NCBI GenBank assembly: GCA_040387855.1
Contig: JAZKCY010000001.1
Span: 104,396 to 168,395 of the forward strand
Direction: 5' to 3'
DNA: 64,000 nt
Source of the DNA: Patescibacteria group bacterium
Lineage (GTDB): Bacteria > Patescibacteriota > Minisyncoccia > Phycocordibacterales > JAKAEA01
Part shown: piece by piece, positions 19,088-63,270 of the stretch
Numbering within the stretch: position 1 is the first letter of the stretch
Layout of the letters: every line of letters starts with the position of its first letter
The notes under the pieces: generated by a model
The model's input: only the letters and a program-made list of their open reading frames with translations
Databases searched by the model: none
Told to the model about the DNA's origin: nothing
Program-made: the position numbers and the translations under genes

Positions 19088-19093
19088 AGACAC

Positions 19094-19911: not shown

Positions 19912-19940
19912 GGCCGATGCATAAACTGCATCGGCCTTTC
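19912..19940 (+). terminator. rho-independent terminator after the 19172 gene
   Basis: GGCCGATGCA-TAAAC-TGCATCGGCC perfect 10-bp stem followed by TTT. Confidence 0.6.
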
Positions 19941-19953
19941 ACTTGGGAAAGAT

Positions 19954-19980
19954 TTGACATGCTCCACACTTTCGTATAAT
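19954..19980 (+). promoter_or_regulatory. consensus sigma70 promoter (TTGACA, 15-nt spacer, TATAAT) re-initiating the rpsS-rplV-rpsC... operon
   Basis: Hexamers read directly from the sequence. Confidence 0.55.
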
Positions 19981-20031
19981 ATGTGACTCACGCTCTGAAC
20001 TAGAGCTCTTTTGTTTCATATATATCTATCC

Positions 20032-20385
20032 ATGGCACGATCACTCAAAAAAGGACCATACGTTGACGAAAAGCTTCTCAAGAAAATTGAGGGCAAAAAG
20101 CCACAGGCTACTGGGGTTATTAAGACCTGGGCACGTGCAAGTCAGATTTCACCAGAAATGGTAGGTTTTATCTTTGGCGTTCACAACGGTAAGGATCATA
20201 TCGAAGTTTTGGTATCTGAAGAAATGGTGGGTCATCGTCTTGGTGAATTTTCTCCAACAAAGAAATTCCTACGACACGGAGGTAAGATGCAGAAGGAGCT
20301 TGAACAGAAAAAGAAGGAATCAGAAATTGCAGCAGCGCAATCTGCTAAGGCTGCAACAGCTGATGCCGGTGCTAAGAAAAAATAA
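20032..20385 (+). CDS. rpsS: 30S ribosomal protein S19 (Lys/Ala-rich C-terminal extension)
   Basis: [12 protein letters not shown] matches S19. The start is placed at the internal ATG of the ORF listed from 20011. Confidence 0.9.
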
Positions 20386-43420: not shown

Positions 43421-43618
43421 TTATGCTCGCTGAACGTTGATAGCGTTCTTTCCTTTTTGTGTGTCTTCTGTATCAAAAGAAACAGCGTCACCTTCTCGTA
43501 GTTCGTCAAAACTAACGCCTACAAGAGAATTAGAGTGAAAGAAAATGTCCTTTCCTCCTTCTTCTGGAGCGATGAAACCGAATCCTTTGTCCATGATCTT
43601 TTTGATTGATCCTTTCAT
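43421..43618 (-). CDS. cspA: cold-shock protein (CspA family)
   Basis: KGFGFI RNP1 motif. Start placed at the internal ATG (MKGSIKK). Confidence 0.85.
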   Translation of the reverse strand: MKGSIKKIMDKGFGFIAPEEGGKDIFFHSNSLVGVSFDELREGDAVSFDTEDTQKGKNAINVQRA

Positions 43619-46345: not shown

Positions 46346-47641
46346 TTAGAAGAACTTGAGCATGAAGGTGATGATGATGAACAATACACCCAGGATGCTC
46401 ACGCTCCAGATGATGTAGCCAAAGAACGAAGGCATCGAGATCCCGCGCCGTTTGGCAATGGCGAAGATCATAAAGTTTGGCGCATTGCCAATGTAGGTGA
46501 GTGCCCCCATATACACGGCGCCAAGACTGATGGCCTTCACGAGGTCTGGTGATTGTGCTGTCAGGTGGGGAAGCGAGGTCGAACCCGTTGTCGATTCGGC
46601 CATCGACATGAATACCAGGAACGTCGGCGCATTGTCGAGCACCGACGAGAACACACCGGTTGCCCAGAAGTACTGTGCTGGCTCGCTCACTCCAAGCGAC
46701 GAACCTGAATGCTGCAGCAGCTGCAGTGCTGGGACCATTGTCATGAAGATCCCGGCGAATACGACTGCCACCTCCACTATCGGTCCGAACTCGAAGTTGT
46801 TTTTTTGTCGCGCCTCTTTTGCAATTGGCGCGAGCTTCGAGTACACGAGTGATATGACGATGGTGATCACGAAGATCACTTCACGCCACGGGCTCGCTAC
46901 CGCAATGACACTGCCTACGATCACCATCATGAGCACTGCATTGCCAAGGCCGATGAGCATGAGTGGCTCCACATGCTCTTTGTCTTGAGCAATATCTTCG
47001 TTGGACTCCTTGTTGTAAAAGTACTTGTCGATCACGAGGTACACAGCGAGCAACACGATGCCGCTCACCAACCAGTAGACCCAAAGATTTCGGGCAAACC
47101 AGAAGAATTCGATTCCTCGCAAGTAGCCGAGGAAGAGCGGTGGGTCACCGAGGGGAGTGAGTAACCCTCCGAGATTGCTTACCAAAAAGATGAAAAACAC
47201 GACAGTATGCCGCACGTGTTTTCGTTCTTGGTTGCTTCGCAATAGTGGATAGATCATGAGGATCGAGGCACCCATTGTGCCCACAACACTCGCCATGATG
47301 TATCCGCTCGCAAGCATCATCGCATTGCGGCCCGGCGTTGCTCGCAGATCACCCTTGATGTGGATGCCTGAGGCAACGATGAACAGCGCAGCGAGGAGCA
47401 GTATGAACTGCACAAATTCGATCCCCGCATGCACGATCAAGTTTCGATCGTGCTGTGCCACGTAGATGGCAACTGGTAAGCCGAGCGTGAGGATCACGCA
47501 CAATTTCACCCAGTTTTTTTCCCACGCATGCTTGGTAAAGCTCACGAGGGGAAGGACTGCGATGAGGCCGAGCAGCACCGCAAACGGCACTACCGACCAC
47601 AGTGTTGGAATCCACGAACTTGCTGCAAGTGATGAAATCAC
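46346..47641 (-). CDS. ArsB/NhaD-superfamily permease (putative ion/anion transporter), elevated GC (about 54%)
   Basis: LTPLGDPPLFLGY matches the TPxGDPPN-type motif, with multi-TM topology. A GTG start sits behind a GAGAGGG Shine-Dalgarno. Confidence 0.6.
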   Translation of the reverse strand: MISSLAASSWIPTLWSVVPFAVLLGLIAVLPLVSFTKHAWEKNWVKLCVILTLGLPVAIYVAQHDRNLIVHAGIEFVQFILLLAALFIVASGIHIKGDLRATPGRNAMMLASGYIMASVVGTMGASILMIYPLLRSNQERKHVRHTVVFFIFLVSNLGGLLTPLGDPPLFLGYLRGIEFFWFARNLWVYWLVSGIVLLAVYLVIDKYFYNKESNEDIAQDKEHVEPLMLIGLGNAVLMMVIVGSVIAVASPWREVIFVITIVISLVYSKLAPIAKEARQKNNFEFGPIVEVAVVFAGIFMTMVPALQLLQHSGSSLGVSEPAQYFWATGVFSSVLDNAPTFLVFMSMAESTTGSTSLPHLTAQSPDLVKAISLGAVYMGALTYIGNAPNFMIFAIAKRRGISMPSFFGYIIWSVSILGVLFIIITFMLKFF

Positions 47642-47777
47642 GACACCCTCTCTGTAAGAACAATTGAATCCGTTCAATCGACGGTCAGACTTTTAAATAC
47701 CACATTATATATATAAAGTCAATATACTAGCAAATAAAAAACCATGAAGCGCGATGGTTTGTCGCGCACTCATGGTG

Positions 47778-48173
47778 TTAAATACTTAGCCCGATTTCTA
47801 TCCGCAAAAGCTCTGAACACCTCTGCATGTCTTCAATCGGTAAGACATGTGCTTCCTTGAAATCTCGATGTCGATCTCTTACTTCTGGGATATCAAACAC
47901 CGACTTCTTGATCATCCGGAAGCAGGCAGGATCATTTTTGATGATTGCCCAGTCTTCACCGGAACCGATGATGATTCCGCATACAAAAGCGATCCACATG
48001 TCCCACGCCTTGAACGAGTGTAGCTCGTCGTTGGGAACTTCCGGTTTCCACGTGGGCAGTGGGCCTGGGTTAAACTTTGCCTGTCCGCGTTGGAAGTAAA
48101 TCATCGAGGTCGTGGGATTGTTTCTTCCATACACCCACAGACACTCAACCGCTGGCAGTTTCACAGACATCAA
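47778..48173 (-). CDS. hypothetical protein, moderately elevated GC
   Basis: 131 aa ORF followed by an ACCAT...ATGGT hairpin and T-run. Confidence 0.4.
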   Translation of the reverse strand: MMSVKLPAVECLWVYGRNNPTTSMIYFQRGQAKFNPGPLPTWKPEVPNDELHSFKAWDMWIAFVCGIIIGSGEDWAIIKNDPACFRMIKKSVFDIPEVRDRHRDFKEAHVLPIEDMQRCSELLRIEIGLSI

Positions 48174-48245
48174 TACCTCCTCGGTTTTGTACAGTAAAGG
48201 TACCGTAGATGATAGTACTAAAATCCAATAAAAAGGCCAGTCGAT

Positions 48246-48449
48246 TTATTTAACTAGATATTTGCCGGCAACACTGAGTGCAAATGAAGGTAAAATAATA
48301 CACACAGTAGTTTGAAGTAATCTAATAAGCACAATGTTGAAGACGGTGCTTCCATCACCATCAGGAGGAGTTGTTGCAATTAGAAGGATGCCAATAATAC
48401 CGAAAGCTATAGATGCGTAGATAAATATTTTAGTAGCAATAGGTTGCAT
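48246..48449 (-). CDS. small membrane protein
   Basis: 67 aa, 2 TM. Confidence 0.35.
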   Translation of the reverse strand: MQPIATKIFIYASIAFGIIGILLIATTPPDGDGSTVFNIVLIRLLQTTVCIILPSFALSVAGKYLVK

Positions 48450-48460
48450 AGAAGTAGTAA

Positions 48461-48664
48461 TTATTTTTTATATTCCAAAACATCACCTGGCTGGCAGTCT
48501 AATGCTTTGCAGATTGCATCAAGAGTTGTAAGTCGTACTGCTTTTGCTTTGCCGTTTTTCAAGATAGAAAGATTGGCCATAGTAATGCCCACTTTTTCTG
48601 TGAGTTCAGTAACGCTCATTTTTCGCTTTGCAAGCATAACGTCAATGTTGATAATAATTGCCAT
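48461..48664 (-). CDS. small XRE-family HTH transcriptional regulator (YozG-like)
   Basis: MSVTELTEKVGITMANLSILKNGKAKAVRLTTLDAICKALDCQPGD. Confidence 0.8.
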   Translation of the reverse strand: MAIIINIDVMLAKRKMSVTELTEKVGITMANLSILKNGKAKAVRLTTLDAICKALDCQPGDVLEYKK

Positions 48665-48671
48665 AAATAGT

Positions 48672-49190
48672 TTATACAGTTAATTCGTTTTCCTTTTTAA
48701 TATCAACAACATTCTGTAAGAGTTTTTGTAGTACACCTGCAAAGGTGGCAATGATAAGTGGTGAACATACAAACGTCATTGCAAAAAGAATGAGTCCAGG
48801 TGCATCATCTCCATCAGCAATAAAAAATGCGAGCGGCATAATAAATACATAACACAAGGTCATACTACCTGCGCAGTACTTTATTGTTTTTAGAGCATTC
48901 ACTGATTCCTGAGAGAACGCAGTGTTCTTATCAATGTATGTTAAAAGCTTGAGACCTTGATAGAGTGCGATGAAAAAGGGAATAGCACTGAGATATAGTC
49001 CTACAAATGCGAAAGGTTGCGACTCTTTAATTCCTGGCCACTCAAGTGCCATTCCTCTATATATGTGAGGGAATGCAAAAATGCAGAGGGCGAGTACCGC
49101 GAGTCCAAATACGATAATGACTGCTTTTAAAAATAATGTTGATCCTTTATTCATAAAACTATGATTAGTTGATGATAAAGAGCTTAGCAT
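48672..49190 (-). CDS. DUF2975-like membrane protein (the usual partner of YozG-like HTH)
   Basis: 172 aa, 4 TM, with the conserved gene pairing. Confidence 0.5.
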   Translation of the reverse strand: MLSSLSSTNHSFMNKGSTLFLKAVIIVFGLAVLALCIFAFPHIYRGMALEWPGIKESQPFAFVGLYLSAIPFFIALYQGLKLLTYIDKNTAFSQESVNALKTIKYCAGSMTLCYVFIMPLAFFIADGDDAPGLILFAMTFVCSPLIIATFAGVLQKLLQNVVDIKKENELTV

Positions 49191-49265
49191 GGCGTATATC
49201 GTAAGTCAATAAATATATATTGTTTTATTATTTTGACTATAAAAAAAGCACTAATGACTTTAGTG

Positions 49266-49892
49266 CTATTTCGATGTATTGCGAACTGCGGCGAAGCATG
49301 TATTCTCCCAAGGGACCCTGAGATCCTGCCCTCCGGTCATGAAGTAGTTTGGAGCGAGTTGGAGTACTCGCTTGTTACTAATCTTCATGAGTACTGGGTT
49401 GTACCCAACGTGGGGTGGGCTCGTGTTGGTTTTATCAAACACCATTTCCCCAAGTGCCAGTACGATGTGGTCGTTCTGGAACTCGGGGTATTTGGCGCCG
49501 AAGGCCAAGAGCTCGACGAGATTTGCCGGACGGCAGTCGTTGTCGACGATGATCTTTAGGATGTCGTTCGTACGCATACTGCGTTCGAACGAAAACATGA
49601 CCATCGTTTCTTCAGCGCTCGCTCGAGTGGTGTCCGAAATTGTACGCGGAATTCGCGGGTTAACCTCCACATACGTACCACGCTCGATATACTCATGCGA
49701 GCTGAGTGTCCGATCAACGGCAACCGAAAATTCTTTCGTTCGAACTTCTGGTCCCGATTCCTTGATCGGGTTCGTCATCGCTTTTTCCTGGGCCTCCTTC
49801 ATCAACCGCTCGCCCTCGTTGTGGGGCGCGCAGCCGATGGTGAGGCCGAGGATCATGACGATGAGGAACGACAGACGGGGAAGCAGTGACAT
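49266..49892 (-). CDS. lipoprotein of unknown function, high GC (about 57%)
   Basis: Signal peptide with lipobox LTIGC. Confidence 0.55.
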   Translation of the reverse strand: MSLLPRLSFLIVMILGLTIGCAPHNEGERLMKEAQEKAMTNPIKESGPEVRTKEFSVAVDRTLSSHEYIERGTYVEVNPRIPRTISDTTRASAEETMVMFSFERSMRTNDILKIIVDNDCRPANLVELLAFGAKYPEFQNDHIVLALGEMVFDKTNTSPPHVGYNPVLMKISNKRVLQLAPNYFMTGGQDLRVPWENTCFAAVRNTSK

Positions 49893-50058
49893 GGTTTCTC
49901 CTTGCAGGGCGCACTGGCTTTTAGTTTCTGCACATGCAGTTACTTCTTGCCAGTAAAGAACGGATCATCAGTACTACATCATATTTAATAATATAAGTCA
50001 AATATAGTTTTTAAATAAAAAACCGCACTACATACACATTGTGTAGACAGGCGGCGAA

Positions 50059-51132
50059 TCAAGTTTGAGGTTTACCTAAAGAACGGAGCAGTCTGTAGTG
50101 GGACACAATGGCCAACCACATCGTGTCGTGTGAGTGGTAGGTCAGTTCGTGGCGTTTGCAGACCCGTCGTACGAGCCTGCAAATTTTGGGGTAGTGGATG
50201 TGGGAAATCCTGGGGAAGAGGTGGTGCTCGATCTGGTAATTTAATCCTCCTAGGAACCAGGTGAGCACTTTGTTTTTTGGAGCGAAGTTGGCCGTCGTGA
50301 GCACTTGATGCTCCGCCCACGCATTTTCCATTGCTCCCTGTTCGGGGTCTGGAAGCGGGAACTTTGTTTCTTCCACTACATGGGCAAGTTGGAATACGAC
50401 GGCAAGTACCACACCCATACACCAACTGGCGAAAAGGTACACGAGCACTACCTGCCAGAACGGATGGAAGAGCGAAGGGATGACAAACGCCCATGTATAG
50501 AACAGAAGCTTGCCTCCAATGAACGTTGCTAGATGCACTCCTCGTGGGCGCGCGAACGGATATTTCCCGATCCGTCCACGTATGACGTTGAGGAAGTCAT
50601 CGAAGAGTTGCCACTTCACAGGAACCAATCCGTACACAAACCACAAATAAATGTGTTGCACGCGGTGAAACCAAAGCCTGGGTTGCGTGGGCGCGAGACG
50701 CCCTAAGATCCCAGTATTGATGTCATCGTCATGCTCCGCAATATTTGTGTATGTGTGATGGACGATGTTGTGCTTGTGCGTCCACACGTACGAACTTCCC
50801 CCTATGGCATCGAGTGAGAATGCAGCGAGACGGTTGATCCATCGGTGTTTTGAAAACGCCTGATGATTCCCGTCGTGCTGAATGCAAAACCCGATTCCTG
50901 CCATCGCCAATCCAATGCTCATGGCGAGCAACATCGCTTGCCACCACGCGGTGGCAAAGAATACGAGCACGATGTAGCTCGCTGCTAGCCACAGCATGAG
51001 CGTGACCGCCTTCACGTAGAGGTCGGCAGTAGCATGGCGACTGCGCTTGGTCATCGCAAAGTAGCGATCCACCGTTTTTTTGAGGTCAGAGAAAAAATCG
51101 CTACGCTTCCGAAACTTGACTGGGGTGATCAT
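50059..51132 (-). CDS. membrane fatty-acid desaturase family protein, high GC
   Basis: Three His boxes: HDGNH, HNIVHH and HQIEHH. Start at the ATG behind GAAAGGAGGG. Confidence 0.8.
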   Translation of the reverse strand: MITPVKFRKRSDFFSDLKKTVDRYFAMTKRSRHATADLYVKAVTLMLWLAASYIVLVFFATAWWQAMLLAMSIGLAMAGIGFCIQHDGNHQAFSKHRWINRLAAFSLDAIGGSSYVWTHKHNIVHHTYTNIAEHDDDINTGILGRLAPTQPRLWFHRVQHIYLWFVYGLVPVKWQLFDDFLNVIRGRIGKYPFARPRGVHLATFIGGKLLFYTWAFVIPSLFHPFWQVVLVYLFASWCMGVVLAVVFQLAHVVEETKFPLPDPEQGAMENAWAEHQVLTTANFAPKNKVLTWFLGGLNYQIEHHLFPRISHIHYPKICRLVRRVCKRHELTYHSHDTMWLAIVSHYRLLRSLGKPQT

Positions 51133-51237
51133 GACACCCTCCTTTCGTTGTAATGCAATTGGTGCTGGTCCAACCAAAGTATACCATCTTGGATGTATAT
51201 TAATTTGAAAGCAGAATCGCAAAGAAATAAAAAGTAC

Positions 51238-52008
51238 CTATACCTCAGAATTCAATATCATTTCAATTTCTTTTTTTACATCCTCATCACTCTTTGTAGG
51301 CATGAGATCTCCTTTTTGATTTCCATAATTACCAGCTTGAGCATGATTCATTCCTTCAATAGGGAAGTCTCTCTGTGACGTTGGAAGATTGCTGCTATAT
51401 GCTGAGAGTTTTTCAGGAGTTAATACACCATCAAGAGAACCATGAATATTTACTACCTTAAAGTTTTTACTTGATACATCGCTGTTGCAGTAGGTTCCTA
51501 CTAAGAGTAATGTCTCAAACTTTTCTGCATGATTTTTTGCATACTCACATGCCATTGCTCCTCCCATTGAATGACCGCCAAGAGTCCATGTTTTTATTTC
51601 AGGATGTGTATCAATTATTTTACCAGCTTGGCCAATACTAAATATCGCGAGATTTAAAGGAGGTTTAGTAACAAACAATATAGAAGGAGAAGAAGTGCTG
51701 GTGACAATACTTTCTAATTTATAAAAGTAAGCTTGAGGATCAACTTTTGCTCCAGGATAATAGATAACTCCTTTTGTAGATGTTGTCGCATTAGGAGCAA
51801 TCTCCCAGTATTTTGGATGCTCAGTTACTGTTATAAGATCTTTATTTGTATTTAAAAATTCTTGAAGTTTAGTTTGATCGGCTTTGTAAATTTGCTTTGC
51901 CCAGATTACAAAAGAAATAACAGCGATCAATAGGAGCGTTATAAGCGTAAGAACTATTTTCCTCCAGAGCTTCATTTTCTTAGGGGTAGGTTGGATAGCG
52001 GTTTGCAT
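51238..52008 (-). CDS. alpha/beta-hydrolase (lipase/esterase-like) with N-terminal TM anchor
   Basis: GHSMGG nucleophile elbow. The start is placed at the internal ATG so it does not overlap the upstream gene. Confidence 0.6.
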   Translation of the reverse strand: MQTAIQPTPKKMKLWRKIVLTLITLLLIAVISFVIWAKQIYKADQTKLQEFLNTNKDLITVTEHPKYWEIAPNATTSTKGVIYYPGAKVDPQAYFYKLESIVTSTSSPSILFVTKPPLNLAIFSIGQAGKIIDTHPEIKTWTLGGHSMGGAMACEYAKNHAEKFETLLLVGTYCNSDVSSKNFKVVNIHGSLDGVLTPEKLSAYSSNLPTSQRDFPIEGMNHAQAGNYGNQKGDLMPTKSDEDVKKEIEMILNSEV

Positions 52009-52138
52009 AAAATATATTATAAAGTGTTTTTTGTTTGTAGGATATTCATAAATAAAAAACTGCGAGATGCATAGAGATGTGAATCTCTCGGCTTTCTCGC
52101 AATAAGTTGGTTGGATGATCCTAACCGATCTTTTCCCT

Positions 52139-52816
52139 TCATTCCTCACTAAGAGGAAATTGGGTCGGAAGTTTCTCGACATGACGTACCATGACATCGA
52201 AACCTCTAAGAATTGTTGGCACGTCTACGCCCGAAAGCTTCACGTGTCCGAATCCCATCTGCCCCATGTCGAGAATCGTGACAACCGTCTCATTTGTCTC
52301 CACCTTGACCTCGATCCTTAAGATGCAGGAAAACTCGGAATCACCGATGCCTTCCAGCCTGCTCTTGAAGTGAGGTAACATCCCGAGCTTGGTGGCGTTG
52401 GACAAGACCCTGTCAGGGATTTCATACATCGCCACGACTTTGCACGGACCGGAGCGCATCTTGAAATACGTAGGGGCCCCAGGTTGCTTGTCGCCGAAGA
52501 CCCGCACGAAATCGTCCGCATCAGTCTCAACTTTATGCTGTGCTGTCACGGGTAAGGACAGCACTAAGGATGTGTCATCCTTAAATTCGGCTTTCCCTCC
52601 ATGAACACCGAATTTAGCCAGAAAGTCGCCGGCAATGTCTTCACCCAGCCTACGTGCTCCTTCTGGTGCCTGAAGATACCATTCCCTCTGGTCACCAGTG
52701 AACCCCGTTCCGATCAAGCGCACTTGAGGATTTCCCGATTTCACAATGCCTCCAAGGCAAGGGTTGTTTGATGAGAACTCTAAGAGGAAATTATAATAAA
52801 ATACATGAGTTGTCAA
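52139..52816 (-). CDS. hypothetical protein, high GC
   Basis: 225 aa ORF with coding-like composition and no recognised family. Confidence 0.45.
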   Translation of the reverse strand: MTTHVFYYNFLLEFSSNNPCLGGIVKSGNPQVRLIGTGFTGDQREWYLQAPEGARRLGEDIAGDFLAKFGVHGGKAEFKDDTSLVLSLPVTAQHKVETDADDFVRVFGDKQPGAPTYFKMRSGPCKVVAMYEIPDRVLSNATKLGMLPHFKSRLEGIGDSEFSCILRIEVKVETNETVVTILDMGQMGFGHVKLSGVDVPTILRGFDVMVRHVEKLPTQFPLSEE

Positions 52817-52899
52817 TTTTATTGTGAAAGTATCTAAAAGAAATAAAAATCCGCAAGAGAGTCGAGGAGAGAATTGAATCTCTCGCGGCTTTCTTGCGG

Positions 52900-53238
52900 C
52901 TACTCATCTTGCATGTGAAGCGACAACCTGATCATCGTGAACCATCTCGCAGGCACGAAATGTGTCGTCTTGAATTCCCCGGGTGTTCGTTCGTGGGGGA
53001 AGTTCACGACCTTACCCGTCTCAGGGGTGTAGGTGGTCAGCCCCATTTCGTTGGGGTTGCAGTTTATGAACTCGGAGTAGAGCTCATCAGGGTCGTTGGG
53101 ATGTACACCCATCACCCCTCGTTCATCTGCCCGGAATCTCCGGATGATCTCGATGACCTCTCCGACTTCATGCCAGCCCCAACTCGCATATGGTTCTGGA
53201 ATGTCTTTGAATCGATGCAAAGCGGGTAACACTTTCAC
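52900..53238 (-). CDS. hypothetical protein, high GC
   Basis: 112 aa ORF with a GTG start behind an AAGGA Shine-Dalgarno. Confidence 0.4.
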   Translation of the reverse strand: MKVLPALHRFKDIPEPYASWGWHEVGEVIEIIRRFRADERGVMGVHPNDPDELYSEFINCNPNEMGLTTYTPETGKVVNFPHERTPGEFKTTHFVPARWFTMIRLSLHMQDE

Positions 53239-53344
53239 GTTTATTCCTTACCACCTTATGGTGGCTGCATAGGAATCTGTTCTTACCTTGGGCTCCCAAG
53301 GTTTCTGCCATTGGTTATATAAAAAATAATAGAAGACTGCAAGT

Positions 53345-53372
53345 AATAAAAAGCCCCGCTAGCATGCCGGGG
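53345..53372 (-). terminator. rho-independent terminator overlapping the stop codon of the 53359 gene
   Basis: CCCCG-CTAGCATGC-CGGGG followed by CTTTTTATT on the - strand. Confidence 0.5.
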
Positions 53373-53739
53373 TGAGACTGCGGGCTCGATTGATGAGCAC
53401 TTCCAAATAGCTGTGCACATCATAATCGAACCACTTCTTTGGACTGTTCGGGTTGAGAATCTTGTCCCTGCTAAACGCCACATGCCCGAGTGGTTCACAC
53501 GCATCCGCAAGATCAGGATAACCTCTCGGCCAGGTTGGCGGATGATGATATCCGGTATAGAGTGTCGCGTCGATAAGGCACGGCTTGTGGTGTGGCAGGG
53601 AACTGAGCTTCACATCCCATGGTACAACTTTAAGCGTGATGAACCCTCGGGCTTTTATGATCCCGAAGATGATCGGCGACAACATTCGCCGCTGGTCCAA
53701 TGGAACGTCGTGAACGACAGTGAGCAACGTAAGAATCAT
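53359..53739 (-). CDS. hypothetical protein, high GC
   Basis: 126 aa ORF with an ATG start behind an AGGAGGG Shine-Dalgarno. Confidence 0.45.
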   Translation of the reverse strand: MILTLLTVVHDVPLDQRRMLSPIIFGIIKARGFITLKVVPWDVKLSSLPHHKPCLIDATLYTGYHHPPTWPRGYPDLADACEPLGHVAFSRDKILNPNSPKKWFDYDVHSYLEVLINRARSLTPAC

Positions 53740-53833
53740 AATATCCCTCCTGGAGAAGATAATACGTCACGGGAGGGAATTGGCAAGAGATTATCAAATA
53801 GCTTTTTATGCTCAACTATTAGATAATTGTAAA

Positions 53834-54262
53834 ATGAAGAAAATAATTAGTGTAATTGTAATTATTACAATTCTACTGTTAGGGTATATTAATATCTTTT
53901 ACTCTGCACCCGCAGAAGATATCTTTGAATTTATTCAAGGATTATTACTGCTATTAATTACTATATTTGTGCCGGCAATATTTATAAAAAAATACATTAA
54001 AAGAACATCAAAGTTATTTGCTACTGGTAAAGGGCTTCTCGTTGGAGGATTACTGGCGATACTCTACAATCTTTTTGATTTTTATTTTATTAAAAAAATA
54101 GTAAATGGCGGTTGTGGTGATCTGTGTGGAATTTCAAATTTTATATTGGGTTTTCTAAGTATTGCCCTAATACTTGTAGGTATTATTTTGTTGATAATTA
54201 ATATAGTTGTAAATATCAAAAGCGGCATTGGTAAAGTTATTGATACTAATTCAAAAAAATGA
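53834..54262 (+). CDS. small polytopic membrane protein
   Basis: Start placed at MKKIISV. Confidence 0.4.
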   Translation: MKKIISVIVIITILLLGYINIFYSAPAEDIFEFIQGLLLLLITIFVPAIFIKKYIKRTSKLFATGKGLLVGGLLAILYNLFDFYFIKKIVNGGCGDLCGISNFILGFLSIALILVGIILLIINIVVNIKSGIGKVIDTNSKK

Positions 54263-55551
54263 AAAATCATAAAAGAGGTTTTGCTCCAGTCATAATAATT
54301 TTTTTGGTAGTTGCTGCTCTTGGAGGTGGTGCATATGTATATACAAATGTTAATGACAAAAAAGAAATCAAAAAAACATTAATAAATGAAAATCCTTTGA
54401 ATGAAACTCCACGTACTGAAAACATACCAAGTACGTCTTCACCATCTCCTAAAACAGCAACGACAACTGTTACTGCTACTACAACTGCAAAAGTTAAAGT
54501 AACACCACCTCCTGTTAAAAAAATAACTATAAGTTGTGCAGCACTCAAACGTAACCTCGTGGTGGGATCAGTGGGGGATGATGTCTATGAACTTCAACGA
54601 TATCTTATGGATCAGGGATTACTCGTAAGAGCAGATTATATTCAAAAGGGAGTCTATGATGAATTTACTCGCGAAGCAGTAGCTCGACTTCATGCAAAGT
54701 TTTCAATTGTTCCTACCGACTTAAGTATTCCGCAGAAAGTTGGAAACTTTGAAAATAAGACCCGAGCATACTTACAAAATGGATGTACAAATACCCAATT
54801 GGTAGCAGCACCTCCTTCTCAGGAAAAACCATTCGATGCTGAATGTCTTTCAAGTTCAGCACCTGCTACTTCTATCGGCATTCCATGTAAACAAAATTTA
54901 ACTACATCAGCATCGGCAAATGTCACAGTGATAACTCCAAATGGAGGTGAGGTGTATTCAATAGGTTCACAGATTCCTGTTATTCGATGGAAGGTACCTT
55001 CTCCCTATAATGCAATTGAACTTGTGCTTATGCCTATGAGTGGAACTAATACCAATAGCCCAATATATAGTGCAAAACTTAAGGGATATGGTTTTGGTGG
55101 ATATGTCCCAAAACAAAACAGCCAATCAGTGGTAGATAGACCAATGATTATGACTGAAAATACTATTGATCAAACGATTCCTCCTGGGCAATATAAAATG
55201 AGAATTTACTATTATGCTGAAGGACAAGATTATACTGAAGCTGAATATCTACCCTTAGGCTATGATGACAGTGATCAATCATTTACACTTATTGATGCTC
55301 CAGAGATTACAGAATTTAGAACATCTCATGAAATTACAAGTGACATCAGATCTACTACATTGGTTTGGAAAACTACAAATGCAGCATTTTGTACAATGAG
55401 TGGTCCTAACTTCGCAGCAAATACTAGTGTGGAAATTGAGAGTGCCGTAAGTACTGGGAATTTAAATGCTACCAGTACCTATATGCTCACGTGTGAAAGT
55501 AAAAAAGGACAAAAGGTTTCAAAATCACTTACTGTTTTTGTAAGTCAATAA
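54259..55551 (+). CDS. secreted protein with a peptidoglycan-binding-like domain (PG_binding_1) and Thr-rich linker
   Basis: Signal/TM at the N-terminus, then GDDVYELQRYLMDQGLL...TREAVARLHAKFSI. Confidence 0.5.
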   Translation: MKNHKRGFAPVIIIFLVVAALGGGAYVYTNVNDKKEIKKTLINENPLNETPRTENIPSTSSPSPKTATTTVTATTTAKVKVTPPPVKKITISCAALKRNLVVGSVGDDVYELQRYLMDQGLLVRADYIQKGVYDEFTREAVARLHAKFSIVPTDLSIPQKVGNFENKTRAYLQNGCTNTQLVAAPPSQEKPFDAECLSSSAPATSIGIPCKQNLTTSASANVTVITPNGGEVYSIGSQIPVIRWKVPSPYNAIELVLMPMSGTNTNSPIYSAKLKGYGFGGYVPKQNSQSVVDRPMIMTENTIDQTIPPGQYKMRIYYYAEGQDYTEAEYLPLGYDDSDQSFTLIDAPEITEFRTSHEITSDIRSTTLVWKTTNAAFCTMSGPNFAANTSVEIESAVSTGNLNATSTYMLTCESKKGQKVSKSLTVFVSQ

Positions 55552-55654
55552 GAGTATAGAACTTAAATACACAAAAGGCTCAGATGAAAATCTGAGTCTT
55601 TTGTGTTTAATGAAGTTAGAATCTCCTTATATGGTGGGGTATTAAAACTTATAT

Positions 55655-56326
55655 TTAAGAAACAAAACTTAAGAATTCATCACCAAAGTTTGTTGTCCTT
55701 TTCGCAAGCATACCTGAACTACTAGTCGTGGCATGGAGCGTGCCTTTTAAAGTTAACCCTTTTGCTTCAAGGTCCTGATATATCAAATCGTAGAACTCTC
55801 TTTTTCCACGAAGTTCAGGATATACTTCTTCCATAAATGTTGTTGCGCCACCCATTGAATATTTATCAAGGTTTACTCCATTAGTTATACAAGCATTTTT
55901 AGGGTCACTAAAATAATGCAAAATTTTAATATGCCAAGGAGTAATGTTATCAATGTATGATAAAAAGATCAGCTTCATATTATTGCTTATGGTTATATTT
56001 CTTGCTGTATTAACTATTGCGTTTTTTAAAGCATCTAGTTTTTCTTGTTCGTGATTTCTAATAGCAATTTGGGATGCATGAATGAAGACTGTAATAAACT
56101 CAGGATTATTCATCAGCTTTTCTTTTGATATAGATTCATCTTCAAGTCTGTTTATTCTCTCTGCCATTTCATTAAACCATTGGGTTTTTCGGGTTTCGAG
56201 CGGAGTATTTACTAAACCAAGTAGTTCTAATGCTGGCCCACCAATAGCAGGAATCATGGAAGCTACAATTTTTGTAATAAACATTGCATGATCGCCAACG
56301 GTTTCTTTTTCTGGGAGTTTACCCAT
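55655..56326 (-). CDS. hypothetical protein (possibly Abi/defence-like; unassigned)
   Basis: 223 aa soluble protein adjacent to the ssrA locus. Confidence 0.35.
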   Translation of the reverse strand: MGKLPEKETVGDHAMFITKIVASMIPAIGGPALELLGLVNTPLETRKTQWFNEMAERINRLEDESISKEKLMNNPEFITVFIHASQIAIRNHEQEKLDALKNAIVNTARNITISNNMKLIFLSYIDNITPWHIKILHYFSDPKNACITNGVNLDKYSMGGATTFMEEVYPELRGKREFYDLIYQDLEAKGLTLKGTLHATTSSSGMLAKRTTNFGDEFLSFVS

Positions 56327-56380
56327 GCTGCGATTATACTCCTGTGATAAAAATCAGCAAATTCATAGGTTCGATTCCCA

Positions 56381-56626
56381 TCATGTCCACATGCTTATTA
56401 GCTTCTCCTTCTTATCTCTTCGCCATTTTTTAATCTGAATTTCTCTTTTGCGAGCAGAGGCCAATGTTGCATGTGTTTCAAGAAACACTATTTTGAATTC
56501 TGATTTAAATTTTGTGTAGTAAGCACCTCGCCCAGAGTTGTGCTCAGCTAATCTCCTTTGTGGTTCATCGGTTACTCCAATATATAAATTGTTATAGGAG
56601 TTTTTTATCATGTAGACGTAGTACAT
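56381..56626 (-). CDS. small GIY-YIG nuclease-superfamily protein (UPF0213/YhbQ-like)
   Basis: YVYMIKNSYNNLYIGVT...RRLAEHN...KKW. Confidence 0.7.
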   Translation of the reverse strand: MYYVYMIKNSYNNLYIGVTDEPQRRLAEHNSGRGAYYTKFKSEFKIVFLETHATLASARKREIQIKKWRRDKKEKLISMWT

Positions 56627-56732
56627 GAGAGGAGTATGAAACAGGGAAGGTGAAACAGATATAAAGAAAAGATAAACACAGAAAAGCCCGTTCGACTCCT
56701 CGAAGACTCGTCGCTCAGGGCACTCGATTCGC

Positions 56733-56770
56733 AGTAACAAAAAACACTACTGTTTTAACAATAGTGTTTT
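56733..56770 (-). terminator. rho-independent terminator of ssrA
   Basis: AAAACACTA / TAGTGTTTT 9-bp stem, followed on the - strand by TTTTTTGTT. Confidence 0.55.
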
Positions 56771-56817
56771 AGGTGGCTTGCCACGAGTGATCCTGCGTTC
56801 TTGCGCGGCGAATCGAG

Positions 56818-57226
56818 TGGAGATGGCGGGAATCGAACCCGCGTGCAAAAGAAGTTCTTAAATGGGTCTACAATGTATAGAGAATCTTAACCACCCGAAG
56901 GTGGGTTTAAACGCAGTGGGTAAAAAGATAATCAAAATTCCCACGTTGCCGAGTCCCTTTATTTCGATCAATCATCGGAACGAGTGAAAGATCTATCTCA
57001 ACGATATACCACCAACACTTAGTAAGTTGAGAAAAAACTAAGGTGGCGTCGTCTGGCTACCGTTTAAAGGGGTTTACGCGAGAGCGAAAGCGAAGTTACT
57101 TGCGTAAGGCGAAGCAACTGCTGTTCGTGCTGATTTTGCACTTGAAGTTTCCGTCAGATTTAAGAGTTAACGGTGCTCTACATTGCGCAGATAAGAAACA
57201 AACTCTTGTCTAGGCCGATCATCCCC
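56818..57226 (-). ncRNA. ssrA: tmRNA (transfer-messenger RNA)
   Basis: The 5' GGGGATG pairs with the 3' CATCTCC-A, including the G3:U70 alanine identity pair. The T-arm reads GCGGGTTCGATTCCCGC. There is an internal in-frame tag ORF ...AVASPYASNFAFALA* ending in TAA. smpB lies immediately upstream. Confidence 0.85.
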
Positions 57227-57323: not shown

Positions 57324-57782
57324 CTAACGATCTTTATACTCTCTTCGTATCTGACGTTCGGTATCGCGTTTCTTTATTGATTCGCGTTTATCAAACTGCT
57401 TCTTTCCTCGAACTGTTGCAATTTCAACCTTAATCTTGTGTCCTTTATTATACACTGTAATTGGCACTATTGTCAATCCTTTAACGAGGCCTGCAAGTTT
57501 GGCTATTTCATTGCGTGTAAGCAACAATTTGCGGTTTTGCAGAGGATCATAATCATCTACATTTCCTACCTGATATGGAGGGATTTGCATGTGCATTATA
57601 TAGGCTTCTCCACCACGAATGATGATATATGAGCCTTCAAGTGACCCTTGGCCCTTGCGAAGTGACTTCACTTCCTGACCAGATAGCACAATACCAGCCT
57701 CGAAGCGCTCGAGGATTTCGTAGGTAAAGTGGACTTTTCGGTTGTGGATGAGTGTGCTCACATAATTATGATAACAGAGCAT
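57324..57782 (-). CDS. smpB: SsrA-binding protein SmpB
   Basis: NRKVHFTYEILERFEAGIVLSGQEVKSLR. The exact start is uncertain. Confidence 0.85.
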   Translation of the reverse strand: MLCYHNYVSTLIHNRKVHFTYEILERFEAGIVLSGQEVKSLRKGQGSLEGSYIIIRGGEAYIMHMQIPPYQVGNVDDYDPLQNRKLLLTRNEIAKLAGLVKGLTIVPITVYNKGHKIKVEIATVRGKKQFDKRESIKKRDTERQIRREYKDR

Positions 57783-57864
57783 GGCCGAAAGTATAGGGGA
57801 GCTCATGCGTCCATACATATATATACGGTAACGGGATAGCTTTTTTAATGTATAATAATCACCT

Positions 57865-59796
57865 ATGAACGGAAATAATAATCAAACGCCAGGCCCGCGA
57901 TCGCCTCAAAAGCCCAAGGCTCCGTCGGGAAATCAGTTTTTGAAGAATATGTTGACGGGTCTGTTTATCCTCTTCATGTTGATCTTGCTCTACTCAGTAG
58001 TAGCAGAACGACGAGGAAAGGCGGAAGAAATATCATTGTCTCAGTTGGCAAATGATATTACGTCAGGAAAGGTAACGAAAGTTGTGGTAAATGGTGATAC
58101 GGTAAACGCGCATTACGATATTAAGAATGAGGTAGTAAAGACAGCAAAGAAGGAAGACGGTACTGCGCTTACTGACACATTGGTAAACTACGGAGTTACA
58201 CCGCAGCAGCTTTCACAAGTTGCTATTCAAGTTGAAAATCCAAACGGCTTAGCATTTTGGGTTCTCAATCTTGCGCCGATTATTCTCCCAATCTTGATTG
58301 TTATCTTGATTGCATGGTTCATCACTCGCCAAGTGAAGGGAGCTGGTGTACAAGCATTCACCTTCGGACAATCAAAGGCTCGAATTATCCCACCAGATGA
58401 TAAAAAGCAGCGAGTGACATTTAAGGATGTTGCCGGTGCTAAAGAAGCAAAAGAAGAACTCGCAGAAATTGTAGACTTCTTAAAGAATCCAAAAAAGTTC
58501 TTGGAGATTGGTGCACGAATTCCAAAAGGTATTCTTTTGATGGGTTCACCTGGAACTGGTAAGACATTGCTCGCTCGAGCAGTGGCAGGGGAAGCTCAAG
58601 TAGCATTCTTCTCAATCTCAGGTTCTGAATTCGTTGAAATGTTTGTGGGAGTAGGAGCTTCACGAGTACGAGATCTTTTCAAACTCGCAAAACAAGCTGC
58701 ACCTGCAATTATCTTCGTCGACGAAATTGACGCCGTAGGACGAATTCGAGGAACAGGAGTAGGAGGAGGAAATGATGAACGAGAACAAACACTCAACCAG
58801 ATTCTCGTTGAAATGGATGGATTCGAACCAAACGAAAAAGTTATCGTTATGGCCGCAACCAACCGACCAGACGTGCTCGACCCAGCGCTGTTGCGACCAG
58901 GACGATTTGACCGACGTGTGATGATTGATCCGCCAGACCGACATGACCGATTAGAAATTCTTAAAATTCATGCTCGCCAGAAACCATTTGGTGAAGATGT
59001 AAATCTTGAAGTGATTGCAGAACGAACTCCAGGATTTTCTGGAGCCGATCTCTACTCACTTATGAACGAAGGTGCTATCCTTGCAGCTCGTGAAAACCGA
59101 ACAAAGATCACTCAATACGATCTTATCCGATCTATCGAAAAAGTTATGCTCGGACCGGAACGAAAGAGTCATATCTTAAACAAGCGAGAAAAAGAACTCA
59201 CTGCATATCATGAAGCAGGACATGCACTCGTAGCATCAGTACTCGAACACTCAGACCCAGTGCACAAAATCTCTATCATCTCTCGAGGACGAGCAGCGGG
59301 ATACACCCTGAAGCTTCCACTTGAAGATCGACGAATGCAGTCACGAAAAGAATTCATCGACGATATTGCAATGACCCTTGGAGGATTCATTGTAGAAAAG
59401 ATGATCTACGGTGATACAACTACAGGTCCATCAAACGATCTTCAAGTATCAACAGCACTTGCACGAGATATGGTGACTCGATACGGTATGTCTGAGAAGC
59501 TTGGACCTATTGCTCTTGAAGGAGAGGGAGGACGAGCACTCTTCGGACGAGGTGTTGAAGACCATACTCACTCGGAAAAAATCTCTAGTCAGATTGATGA
59601 GGAAGTAGCATTGATTATGAACACTGCTTACAAGAAAGCAGAAGAGATTATCGTGAAGCATAGAAATGTGCTTGAGATAATCACTCGACGATTGATTGAA
59701 ACAGAAACAATCGAACGAGAAGAATTTGATCAGATCCTTGTGGCAAACGGAATCAATCTAAAAAAGAGACAAGAAGAGGTTATAGCTAAAGTATAA
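57865..59796 (+). CDS. ftsH: ATP-dependent zinc metalloprotease FtsH
   Basis: GSPGTGKT Walker A, AAA SRH, and HEAGHA zinc motif. Confidence 0.95.
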
Positions 59797-59835: not shown

Positions 59836-59842
59836 AAAAATG

Positions 59843-59916
59843 TCCACCCTCTTGGATTCGAACCAAGGACCACCGAGGTATAAGCTCGGTGCTCTAACCA
59901 ACTGAGCTAAGGGTGG
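59843..59916 (-). tRNA. tRNA with anticodon UAU (Ile-type, AUA-reading), 74 nt, CCA not encoded
   Basis: Manual fold: acceptor CCACCCT/AGGGTGG, D-arm GCTC-AGTTGGTTA-GAGC, anticodon arm CCGAG-CTTATAC-CTCGG, variable loop TGGTC, T-arm CTTGG-TTCGAAT-CCAAG, discriminator A. Confidence 0.75.
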
Positions 59917-61113: not shown

Positions 61114-63270
61114 TTATTCAAAGTGGATGTCATCTTGTCGTGCGACTTTATTTTTTAAGATGGGGTAGTGGGAGAGCGTAAGATCATGTTCAAGAAGAGT
61201 CCGAGCTTCGGTACGGGCTGCTTCTACCATTTTCAGATTTTTCATTGCTTCCATCGCCAGGTCAGAAACACCCCATTGCTTACGACCATAGAGCTGCCCG
61301 GCACCGCGGAGTTGAAGATCAAATTCAGAAAGTTCAAATCCGTTTTTTGCAGTCTTTAATGCATTGAGTCGGTCCATTGATTTCTGTGATGATGTCTCAG
61401 AAAAGACATAACAGTATGCCTGATGATTGGATCGAATAACACGACCTCGTAATTGGTGCAGCTGTGAAAGACCAAAACGTTCTGCTCCTTCAATAATAAT
61501 AATAGTAGCATTAGGAACATTTACTCCCACTTCAACTACCGATGTGGCAACAAGAATATGTATTTTGCCGTCAGAGAAATCTTGCATCACATCTTCTTTC
61601 TCATCAGGTTTCATCTTGCTATGCAAAATGTCTATGTTGTACTCAGGGAAGACTTCTTTCTTAAGTCGCTTTGCTTCTTCTTTTACCGATTTTGCTTCGA
61701 CAGCAAATTCTTTTGATGGATCTGGCTCATCAATGCGCGGACATATCACATAAAGCTGTCGGCCAGCTTTCATTTCTTCCCGAATCCTTTCGTACGTTTG
61801 CGCACGCTTTGTTGGAGGAATAATATCAGTAATTATTGGCTTTCGTCCTACCGGCATTTGATCAAGCAGCGTTAAATCAAGATCACCAAAGACAGTAAGA
61901 GCGAGCGTGCGGGGAATAGGGGTTGCAGTCATTGAAAGCAGATGTGGAATTTGGGCTTGTTTGTTTACAAGTTTTTGTCGTTGCTTGGTACCAAATCTGT
62001 GTTGCTCATCAATGATTACATATGACAGATGCTTAAACTGCACGGCTTTTTGAATAAGAGAATGCGTTCCAATAAGAATGGGAATTTCACCATTGGCTAC
62101 CCATTTCAAAAGTTGGGTGCGAGAAATGTCGGTCCATCCTTCAGGATTTACTTTTGAAGGAAACTTTTTGCAACCAGATGAAGTGATGAGTCCAATACTA
62201 ATTCCTAAATGATAAAAATATTTAATAAATGATTCGAAATGTTGTTTGGCCAAGATTTCAGTAGGGCACATGTAGGCAACTTGAAGAGTCCCGAAAACTT
62301 GTCCCTTTGGACGAGTGGTTACTGCTGCATAAGTGGTAGTTGCTGCCACTGCTGTTTTTCCAGATCCCACATCTCCTTCAAGAAGTCGTGACATAGGATG
62401 ACCTGATTTAAAATCATCGATGATTTGTGAGATGGCTTTTGCTTGTGCTTCGGTTTCTTTAAACGGAAAACGTGAAGTGAACTTTTCTAAATCAGAATAC
62501 TCTTTTTCGATAATAAATGCAGGATTATTTTCGTTCTCGAGTCTATCTTTTTGTTTTAAGAGCTGGATCATAAACACTTCTTCAAAAGCAAAACGTTTTC
62601 GTGCTGCTTCAGAGTCACTCAATTTGCGGGGAGTGTGAATCCAGATAAGCGCAGTCTTTAATCCAGGTAATTTATATTTTTCTAGAATTTCTTGTGGAAT
62701 TGGATCTTCACATGAATCTAAACTATTTGCAGAAAATACTTTTTGAATAGCATGAAAGATCCATCGTGAAGTAATTCCCTGAGTTTCAGGATATACAGGG
62801 TAGAGACCACCTTGCTCGTGTGATTCGCCAAAAAGGGAAGTGCCTGCAACTGCTGGAGGCTTATCGGTAAATTCATATTCAGGATTTGAAAGATAGAAGC
62901 CTCCTGTTTTTCGTTCACTTACTTTTCCTGTAAAGCGAGCATATGATCCTTCGGGAATCATCTTGGCAATATATGCTTGGTGAAACCACACTACTCCCAT
63001 AGTTCCTGTCGCATCTTCAAGCGTAGCTTTGGCCATGGGGATCTTAGAACGAAAACCTTTTTTTAATTCTACCCCTGTAATTTTTGCATAAATAGAAGCT
63101 GTTTCTCCTTTAACCAAATTAGAAATATTTTTAACATCTCCAGCTTCAGAATAGCGGGTGGGGAAATAGTAGAGCAAATCTTCAATAGTCTTAAGACCAA
63201 GTCGTTGAAGTGCTTTCTTTTGGATATCTAATGTTCGGAAGGCTTTCTCAATCGGTGTCGTGAGTTCCAT
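61114..63270 (-). CDS. recG: ATP-dependent DNA helicase RecG
   Basis: Wedge domain, DVGSGKT Walker A and DEQHRFG Walker B. 718 aa. Confidence 0.9.
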   Translation of the reverse strand: MELTTPIEKAFRTLDIQKKALQRLGLKTIEDLLYYFPTRYSEAGDVKNISNLVKGETASIYAKITGVELKKGFRSKIPMAKATLEDATGTMGVVWFHQAYIAKMIPEGSYARFTGKVSERKTGGFYLSNPEYEFTDKPPAVAGTSLFGESHEQGGLYPVYPETQGITSRWIFHAIQKVFSANSLDSCEDPIPQEILEKYKLPGLKTALIWIHTPRKLSDSEAARKRFAFEEVFMIQLLKQKDRLENENNPAFIIEKEYSDLEKFTSRFPFKETEAQAKAISQIIDDFKSGHPMSRLLEGDVGSGKTAVAATTTYAAVTTRPKGQVFGTLQVAYMCPTEILAKQHFESFIKYFYHLGISIGLITSSGCKKFPSKVNPEGWTDISRTQLLKWVANGEIPILIGTHSLIQKAVQFKHLSYVIIDEQHRFGTKQRQKLVNKQAQIPHLLSMTATPIPRTLALTVFGDLDLTLLDQMPVGRKPIITDIIPPTKRAQTYERIREEMKAGRQLYVICPRIDEPDPSKEFAVEAKSVKEEAKRLKKEVFPEYNIDILHSKMKPDEKEDVMQDFSDGKIHILVATSVVEVGVNVPNATIIIIEGAERFGLSQLHQLRGRVIRSNHQAYCYVFSETSSQKSMDRLNALKTAKNGFELSEFDLQLRGAGQLYGRKQWGVSDLAMEAMKNLKMVEAARTEARTLLEHDLTLSHYPILKNKVARQDDIHFE

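Follow-up and report, generated by a model that had tools for sequence, protein, structure and literature searches.

A predicted DesD-like acyl-chain desaturase in a tmRNA-adjacent variable island of a Parcubacteria-type bacterium

Introduction

Acyl-lipid desaturases act on fatty-acyl chains bound in glycerolipids and draw their electrons from ferredoxin (PMC9825965), and DesD of Synechocystis sp. PCC 6803 (sll0262) was the first front-end desaturase to be described (PMC4728637). Here we describe a predicted DesD-like desaturase gene in a 64,000-nucleotide stretch of contig JAZKCY010000001.1 from a Patescibacteria group bacterium (the whole stretch is called the window hereafter), and we place it in a variable region beside ssrA, the gene for transfer-messenger RNA (tmRNA). 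Published work on Patescibacteria, also called the candidate phyla radiation (CPR), reports that they lack fatty-acid synthesis and holds that they recycle the lipids of other cells (PMC7242380, PMC12455944, PMC9938205), and antioxidant genes are common in those that live in oxic groundwater (PMC9938205). A literature search for fatty-acid desaturases in CPR bacteria found no paper.

Three further groups of described enzymes frame the comparison. The Bacillus Des enzymes (delta-5 DesA, NF052548; delta-10 DesB, NF052549) resemble the window protein in being bacterial membrane enzymes, acyl-lipid desaturases by class, that lack a cytochrome b5 domain; their donor is ferredoxin or flavodoxin, and they serve the control of membrane fluidity. 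Front-end enzymes place a new double bond (delta-4, -5 or -6) on the carboxyl side of one that is already present. An N-terminal cytochrome b5 domain defines only the eukaryotic front-end enzymes, and the window protein differs from these in carrying no such fusion. The SCD-type delta-9 ('first') desaturases, such as mammalian SCD1 and the Pseudomonas DesA-like PA3FAD9, would share with the window protein a di-iron centre, the use of O2 and three histidine boxes, but their boxes are spaced HxxxxH / HxxHH / HxxHH (PMC4975390), whereas those of the window protein are spaced HxxxH / HxxxHH / QxxHH.

Results

The predicted protein has a single Pfam match, FA_desaturase (PF00487), at 130.2 bits against a cut-off of 29.7 (E 1.5e-37), with residues 62-334 aligned to positions 1-251 of the 253-position profile, and it has 7,990 homologues in the databases. 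Together with the retention of all conserved metal-ligand residues, this match bears out the membrane desaturase named in a first-pass annotation of the window. Aligned with 31 homologues, the protein keeps every invariant column, and these columns include H86, D87, H90, H121, H125, H126, H134, H156, H251, H275, Q300, H303, H304, H311 and H345. Two of the three histidine boxes listed in that annotation, HDGNH and HNIVHH, stand as given, but the third, 'HQIEHH', is wrong by one residue: the translation reads YQIEHH, with glutamine in the place of the first histidine of the box, and an xQxxHH third box is present in all 121 of the 121 closest homologues. With a Pfam score of this size, the signature lies far outside what chance would give. 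An AlphaFold model based on the alignment reaches a mean pLDDT of 90.3, and its helices at residues 36-59, 63-89, 199-220 and 225-251 coincide with two hydrophobic hairpins marked by hydropathy peaks; modelled in this way, the protein is predicted to have a four-helix membrane core with the desaturase/AlkB fold. Among PDB chains no sequence-level match to the protein was found, and none was found to AlkB. An identical protein, encoded on a contig of 981,549 bp, is deposited in GenBank under the name 'MAG: acyl-CoA desaturase [Patescibacteria group bacterium]', and the JGI name for its relatives is 'linoleoyl-CoA desaturase'.

The nearest characterised relative is DesD (BAA18502.1, 'delta-6 desaturase / sn-1 linoleoyl-lipid 6-desaturase', its identity confirmed by exact sequence look-up), which aligns end to end with 36% identity over 351 residues and one gap (E 5e-83), the two proteins being 357 and 359 residues long. 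Both carry the boxes HDxNH, HNxxHH and QxxHH (the third box of DesD is HQVTHH), an N-terminal 'KF' segment and a C-terminal YRxL..GK tail, and both lack a cytochrome b5 domain: the alignment with DesD starts at residue 7, and in the window protein, where FA_desaturase is the only Pfam match, no HPGG motif is found. The setting of the two genes differs. The host of the window gene is a non-photosynthetic CPR bacterium that is unlikely to hold 18:2 delta-9,12 substrates, and the gene is compositionally foreign and sited in a variable island. Matches to NCBIfam models all fall below threshold, with Bacillus DesB at 39.1 bits and DesA at 21.2 bits (cut-off 500), a different subfamily. Assignment to a non-desaturase di-iron family such as the hydroxylases or ketolases, which the first-pass annotation had named as a refuting outcome, found no support: the beta-carotene hydroxylase CrtR scores 27 bits against a cut-off of 475. 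Going by sequence, then, the window protein lies outside the Bacillus Des, SCD and CrtR groups, and the conserved residues, the DesD alignment, the profiles and the model place it, as a predicted enzyme that lacks the cytochrome b5 domain, in the DesD-like ('front-end', delta-6-type) branch of FA_desaturase proteins. Homologues from high-GC bacteria, among them Planctomycetota of the Tepidisphaeraceae, Planctomycetaceae and Gemmataceae, are closer in sequence, at 50-62% identity over the full length and with the same invariant residues and Q-box, and their genes fit the GC content of their hosts, unlike the window gene; in the literature we found no experimental characterisation of these homologues.

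The coding sequence begins at an ATG to which all homologues align, and for this reason a longer 387-residue open reading frame (ORF) from a TTG at 51222, present in the program-made ORF list, was discounted. The AGGAGGG Shine-Dalgarno (SD) sequence noted at the outset lies 4 nt ahead of this ATG. A candidate extended -10 promoter element can be read further upstream; a consensus promoter scan called no promoter at that position. Past the stop codon, RNAfold gives -13.8 kcal/mol for the 44-nt hairpin plus T-run and -16.6 kcal/mol for the first 80 nt, followed by TTTTTTATTT; a simple terminator scan did not pick up the hairpin. The gene had been described as high in GC, and it is: its GC content is 0.521 and its GC content at third codon positions (GC3) is 0.628, against 0.404 for the whole window and a GC3 of 0.20-0.34 for the housekeeping and other native genes of the window. 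The desaturase thus stands 0.12 above the window mean in GC, and the intergenic DNA on either side of it is AT-rich, as in the native genome.

The best non-identical homologues of the desaturase reach only 57-66% identity, and ten proteins form a clade that comprises the window protein, P0002, P0003, P0004, P0017, P0030, P0008, P0024, P0029 and P0025. In a neighbour-joining tree rooted on DesD, all ten group together with a bootstrap of 79/100 and an inner five with 100/100. With a profile built from the ten, the members themselves reach 638-702 bits, whereas the best other database protein stops at 574, a gap of 64 bits, and a search with this profile among 5.8 billion protein clusters found no further member. 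A scan of JGI metagenome contigs found none of the CPR clade among 80 loci, all at or below 59% identity and all high in GC, and a search of genome contigs with the single window protein returned four distant loci at 27-41% identity.

All four clade members with visible genomic context, the window included, lie a few kilobases past the RecG-tRNA-Ile-FtsH-SmpB-tmRNA backbone of related Parcubacteria (Table 1), in which tmRNA adjoins SmpB in 5 of 5 related loci. Downstream of the desaturase, the DUF2975 and HTH_26 pair of the window recurs in L006 and in the P0017 contig, and the window HTH_26 is 91-92% identical to the L006 copy. At the protein level the desaturase has diverged between these contigs about as far as housekeeping genes (Table 1). 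Nonsynonymous divergence (dN) is 0.28-0.32 for the desaturase, compared with 0.31-0.35 for SmpB, 0.23 for RecG and 0.20 for FtsH; the ratio to synonymous divergence (dS) was not computable, synonymous sites being saturated in all four genes. Because dN resembles that of housekeeping genes and synonymous sites are saturated, the desaturase copies appear to date back to the separation of the genomes and to have been under purifying selection. Two neighbours in the related contigs deserve mention. In L007 a cold-shock gene (9669-9866) lies directly upstream of the desaturase, and an 85%-identical homologue lies 7.5 kb from the desaturase in the window; by its adjacency this gene may hint at a link to cold adaptation. 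In L006 (11743-13073) and L007 (14842-16313), a pair of genes for a small Oxidored_molyb protein and an FAD_binding_6/NAD_binding_1 protein (the latter of cytochrome-b5-reductase/FNR type) lies 5-7 kb from the desaturase and is a possible lead to its electron donor.

The SD sequence sets the desaturase apart from most genes around it. With an SD core defined as GGAG, GAGG or AGGA at -18 to -7, 1 of 49 low-GC3 ORFs in the window has one, against 7 of 9 GC-rich ORFs, and a TATAAT-like box ends 4-14 nt ahead of the start in 14 of the 49 low-GC3 ORFs; these counts suggest that many native mRNAs are leaderless or very short-leadered. The same split in SD use between native and GC-rich genes is seen in L006 and L007. 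The SD of the desaturase is itself a mark of foreignness. Its leader reads CAACGAAAGGAGGGTGTC-ATG in the window, CAACGAAAGGAGGGTGC-ATG in L006 and TATGAAAGGAGGGTGAC-ATG in L007; the portion GAAAGGAGGGTG is common to all three and missing from the non-CPR copy L008, which supports a single origin of gene and leader in the CPR clade. A literature search on SD or leaderless usage in Patescibacteria found no relevant paper.

The desaturase is an accessory gene of the variable, mosaic-GC region that extends from the tmRNA 3' end to the native gene GT4. Seven GC-rich, SD-led genes, the desaturase among them, are interleaved there with native-like genes (Table 1), and a hairpin-plus-T-run terminator stands behind each island gene. 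What follows tmRNA differs in every relative compared. Among the closer relatives of the window genome, which have RecG at 74-76% identity and the same backbone, L010 has methyltransferases and an ArsR-type regulator followed by DUF2975, with no desaturase; L011 has LeuCD/LeuB-like genes; and L012 has a large serine recombinase and a MerR-type gene, its locus stopping short of the position where a desaturase would be expected. None of the other island genes of the window recurs in the relative loci compared. Like described tmRNA-linked islands, the region begins at the 3' end of ssrA, is hypervariable in content among relatives and mosaic and foreign in composition, and in relatives it carries a large serine recombinase and phage-like genes. 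Unlike them, it shows neither a convincing repeat of the tmRNA 3' end nor any integrase or recombinase domain among the window ORFs of 46-56.8 kb, and the desaturase stands at its far edge, beside conserved flank genes. The best candidate for an att-type direct repeat, a 14-nt near-match GCGGCGAATC(A/G)AGT at 50051-50064 and 56805-56818, was rejected, an estimated 16 or so such pairs being expected by chance in 14 kb. An integron-like cassette array was likewise considered for 11 same-strand genes that are each followed by a 'AAATAAAAAACCGC'-like element, and it was discarded: the elements are ordinary terminators and no integrase is present. A scan of viral contigs with the clade alignment found no relative, so that an origin as prophage cargo is unsupported despite the phage-like genes that adjoin the P0017 desaturase.

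Several further features of the island and its counterparts were recorded. The large serine recombinase and MerR-type gene directly after tmRNA occur both in L012 (18047-20685) and in the P0017 contig, where a GP3_package-like gene is also found, and an integrative element appears to target the ssrA-adjacent site in Parcubacteria. In the window, a plus-strand tRNA-like T-arm/acceptor fragment lies in inverted orientation to the tmRNA 3' end (56817-56839), with which it has 87% complementarity; it overlaps a short GIY-YIG fragment ORF and may be the remnant of an earlier insertion beside ssrA. The sequence ahead of the start of the putative citrate/anion transporter CitMHS_2, a likewise foreign-looking gene of the region, is AGGGTGTC and has the same eight bases as that ahead of the desaturase start. 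The alpha/beta hydrolase gene that adjoins the desaturase recalls a lysophospholipase transferred into a Paceibacteria genome (PMC12455944); it is left out of the proposed system because it is not kept beside the desaturase in relatives.

The host is a Parcubacteria-type CPR bacterium, in agreement with the CPR-like genome proposed from the sequence at the outset and with the NCBI name 'Patescibacteria group bacterium'. The named relatives of its RecG, at 65-76% identity, come without exception from Patescibacteria, Parcubacteria, Paceibacterota or Taylorbacteria, and only 7 nt separate the end of the S5 gene (25848) from the start of L15 (25856), which therefore leaves no room for an L30 gene; a missing L30 between S5 and L15 is typical of CPR bacteria, not exclusive to them. 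The window also carries genes for ComEC, EF-G, EF-Tu, the ribosomal-protein operon, SecY, RecG, FtsH, SmpB and tmRNA. An independent Logan assembly of run SRR26324620 repeats the gene order across 23 kb, which argues against a chimeric join. No fab or pls genes were found among the scanned ORFs of the window (64 kb, about 6.5% of a genome of about 1 Mb). Among the window genes is one for an Fe/Mn superoxide dismutase, which suggests that the host is exposed to oxygen, in keeping with reports that many Patescibacteria live with it (PMC9938205).

As to the source of the gene, the only named non-CPR relatives in two lists of the top 120 homologues are the three planctomycetotal families given above. 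At 32 non-CPR loci the flanking GC is 0.55-0.67, and the desaturase gene differs from its flanks by -0.025 on average and by +0.023 at most. Because these genes match their high-GC flanks, in contrast to the offset of the window gene, the donor was probably a high-GC bacterium.

Features elsewhere in the window and in related contigs are included in Table 1. They comprise an insert of about 3.4 kb that splits the S10 ribosomal operon between rplB and rpsS, in which local GC reaches 0.73 against about 0.40 for the genome and no Rfam family matches, and a long ORF whose weak matches suggest that it is perhaps a coupling protein or DNA-translocation ATPase. A tRNA-Ile with a TAT (UAU) anticodon lies between RecG and FtsH, in the same place as in L007, L010, L011 and L012; in most bacteria AUA is decoded by a modified CAU tRNA instead.

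Table 1. Positions of features in the window, with gene orders and identities in related contigs
Feature	Position	Strand	Details
Desaturase coding sequence	50059-51132	minus	357 aa; ATG at 51132, TGA at 50059-50061
Shine-Dalgarno AGGAGGG	51137-51143	minus	within leader GAAAGGAGGGTG, kept in the CPR orthologues L006 and L007
Candidate extended -10 promoter element TGGTATACT	51178-51186	minus	proposed from sequence reading
His box 1, HDGNH	50863-50877	minus	residues 86-90; H86, D87, H90 invariant in homologue alignment
His box 2, HNIVHH	50755-50772	minus	residues 121-126; H121, H125, H126 invariant in homologue alignment
Box 3, QIEHH	50221-50235	minus	residues 300-304; Q300, H303, H304 invariant; context N-Y-Q-I-E-H-H
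Intrinsic-terminator-like hairpin and T-run	50013-50056	minus	directly 3' of the desaturase stop codon
DUF2975 membrane protein	48672-49190	minus	Pfam; conserved flank downstream of desaturase
HTH_26 (Cro/C1-type) regulator	48461-48664	minus	Pfam; conserved flank downstream of desaturase
tmRNA (ssrA)	56817-57226	minus	called by ARAGORN and by Rfam RF00023 (78.2 bits); conserved anchor for the variable region
SmpB	57324-57818		window backbone
FtsH	57865-59796		window backbone
tRNA-Ile(TAT)	59842-59916		window backbone
RecG	61114-63270		window backbone
Variable mosaic-GC region	46346-56816	.	between tmRNA 3' end and native gene GT4
Island, GC-rich group			GC3 0.56-0.68: CitMHS_2 transporter, 130-aa ORF, 208-aa lipoprotein-like ORF, desaturase, ORFs of 201, 112 and 126 aa
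Island, native-like group			GC3 0.18-0.34: alpha/beta hydrolase, DUF2975, HTH_26, others
CitMHS_2 transporter	46346-47641	minus	E 4.7e-136; GC3 0.68; GTG start
Alpha/beta hydrolase	51238-52008		Abhydrolase_5; weak Hydrolase_4 match
tRNA-like T-arm/acceptor fragment GGTTCGATTCCCATCATGTCCAC	56368-56390	plus	
GIY-YIG fragment ORF	56381-56626		81 aa
Cold-shock protein homologue	43424-43618		
ComEC	92-1612		
Fe/Mn superoxide dismutase	1856-2452	minus	Sod_Fe_C, E 2.4e-23
rplB	15727-16578		
S10 operon insert	16579-20010		
MYG1/UPF0160-like gene in insert	16707-17618		GC-rich; GC3 0.68
315-aa ORF in insert	17682-18629		native GC; DHH-like motif
AAA_33/zeta-toxin-like ORF in insert	18638-19087		
227-aa ORF in insert	19172-19855		GC3 0.96; no Pfam match
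rpsS	20011-20385		
ATPase-like protein	29020-31797	plus	925 aa; weak TraG/VirD4, FtsK and HerA-type ATPase matches
P0004 locus (L006)			64% identity; SmpB - tmRNA - three small genes - desaturase - DUF2975 - DUF2975 - HTH_26
P0017 contig			63% identity; SmpB - large serine recombinase - MerR - phage-like genes - desaturase - DUF2975 - DUF2975 - HTH_26
P0008 locus (L007)			61% identity; HhH-GPD - RecG - tRNA-Ile - FtsH - SmpB - tmRNA - four small genes including cold-shock protein - desaturase
Protein identity, window and related contigs			RecG 69.5%, FtsH 74%, SmpB 59-62%
Protein identity, window and related contigs			IF3 70%, L20 74%, NDK 70%, HTH_26 92%, desaturase 61-64%

Discussion

The comparison presented here leads us to regard as probable that the window gene encodes an intact, O2-dependent di-iron acyl-chain desaturase of DesD-like type, an accessory gene of a CPR clade carried beside ssrA and acting on lipid-bound chains. 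By analogy with the characterised enzymes, desaturation of lipid-bound acyl chains with O2 and a ferredoxin-type donor is the most likely reaction. As in DesD, the enzyme would act on acyl chains already esterified in membrane glycerolipids, drawing two electrons from a ferredoxin- or flavodoxin-type donor while O2 is reduced to water. Such a reaction would put cis double bonds into lipids that are already in the membrane, needing just O2 and a small redox protein, and could allow a cell that depends on host lipids to adjust its membrane fluidity without making or activating fatty acids. In evolutionary terms, an ancestor of a small Parcubacteria group would have taken the gene together with its ribosome-binding site from a high-GC bacterium, and the gene would then have persisted as an accessory of the ssrA-side island under purifying selection; the undecayed GC3 suggests that the window copy may have re-entered the genome from a higher-GC relative.

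Several observations weigh against this account. A six-frame search of the 64-kb window for ferredoxin, flavodoxin, rubredoxin, cytochrome b5 and thioredoxin motifs found nothing credible, and no homologue of the Oxidored_molyb and FNR-like pair of L006 and L007 is present there. Characterised DesD requires a prior delta-9/12 double bond, which is perhaps missing from typical bacterial host lipids, and both NCBI and JGI label the protein as an acyl-CoA rather than an acyl-lipid desaturase. The tree that defines the clade was made by neighbour-joining only and its support is moderate. The composition of the gene is also at odds with simple vertical descent, which is insufficient to account for a desaturase GC3 that stays at 0.61-0.63 in three CPR hosts with native GC3 of about 0.28, 0.45 and 0.50 despite saturated synonymous sites; a recent re-import of the copy from an unsampled higher-GC relative, or selection on composition, would each explain it.

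Two other readings concern what the protein does. The same fold could conceivably support another chemistry, with the protein acting as a hydroxylase or oxidase, or as a desaturase on a sphingoid base, an alkyl chain or a carotenoid- or hopanoid-like lipid. Hydroxylases and ketolases of the superfamily bear the same His boxes, function within the family is not readable from sequence, and a weak match to CrtR exists; this match lies far below its cut-off, the protein has no sequence-level match to AlkB or any PDB chain, its homology to the proven acyl-lipid desaturase DesD runs from end to end, and its QxxHH box is typical of front-end desaturases, so that we judge a different chemistry unlikely. 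We consider it less likely still that the gene is a silent or useless passenger, either unexpressed or inactive in a fermentative cell that has no donor or no oxygen. Such a reading would fit the lack of a redox-partner motif in the window, the position of the gene in a variable island, its absence from the closer relative L010 and the description of CPR bacteria as mostly anaerobic fermenters (PMC9938205), but it sits poorly with a protein that keeps every invariant residue, a gene that has its own SD, terminator and possible promoter, and a dN of about 0.3 with saturated dS in three genomes, the mark of long-term purifying selection. The superoxide dismutase of the window and the antioxidant genes common among oxic-groundwater Patescibacteria (PMC9938205) likewise point towards oxygen.

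The remaining alternatives concern how the gene came to lie where it does. The first-pass annotation had proposed horizontal acquisition, and the compositional part of that proposal stands: a GC3 of 0.63 contrasts with 0.20-0.34 in native genes, a strong SD is kept in a genome whose native genes go without, and six more GC-rich, SD-led genes lie within the same 10-kb region. A single recent transfer directly from a non-CPR bacterium into this genome alone would also suit the near-equal similarity of non-CPR (59-62%) and CPR (57-66%) relatives. It does not agree with the presence of at least three clade relatives at the same locus, in that the closest sequences with visible context come from three CPR contigs with the same backbone, the 5' leader is kept among these copies and not in the non-CPR L008, the CPR copies cluster in the tree (79/100) and are set off by the 64-bit profile gap, and divergence among them equals that of housekeeping genes; a one-off transfer is thus improbable. 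To an error of assembly or binning, in which the desaturase would derive from another organism, we give almost no credence. GC does jump abruptly at the borders of the gene, but native genes surround it within a contig of 981 kb, its flanking intergenic DNA has the native AT-rich character, the separate Logan assembly yields the same order, and the same arrangement is found in three other contigs from other samples. A rare accessory gene, confined to one clade (10 members among 5.8 billion protein clusters) and sited at a hot spot beside tmRNA, is a more fitting description of the desaturase than a one-off acquisition.

The enzyme family is an ordinary one and the protein is already annotated in GenBank, so the value of this locus lies in its host and ecology rather than in a new mechanism. 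For the control of membrane fluidity in CPR bacteria, which are held to be incapable of fatty-acid synthesis, an acyl-lipid desaturase would be a minimal answer: a single enzyme that needs neither fatty-acid synthesis nor the activation of acyl chains. The gene would also be a sign that the lineage encounters oxygen, and it can serve both as a test case that lends itself to cloning and as a marker of a gene-exchange hot spot beside tmRNA in Parcubacteria. The possession of its own SD leader, in genomes whose native genes lack SD sequences and often have a -10 box just ahead of the start codon, may explain the lasting compositional distinctness of the gene. Tentatively, and with less assurance than we attach to the identity of the enzyme, we suggest that a group of Parcubacteria that lives with oxygen may keep a mobile, O2-dependent acyl-lipid desaturase with its own SD leader beside ssrA and may use it to edit host-derived acyl chains within the membrane, which would be the first route to fluidity control in CPR bacteria that does not need fatty-acid synthesis.

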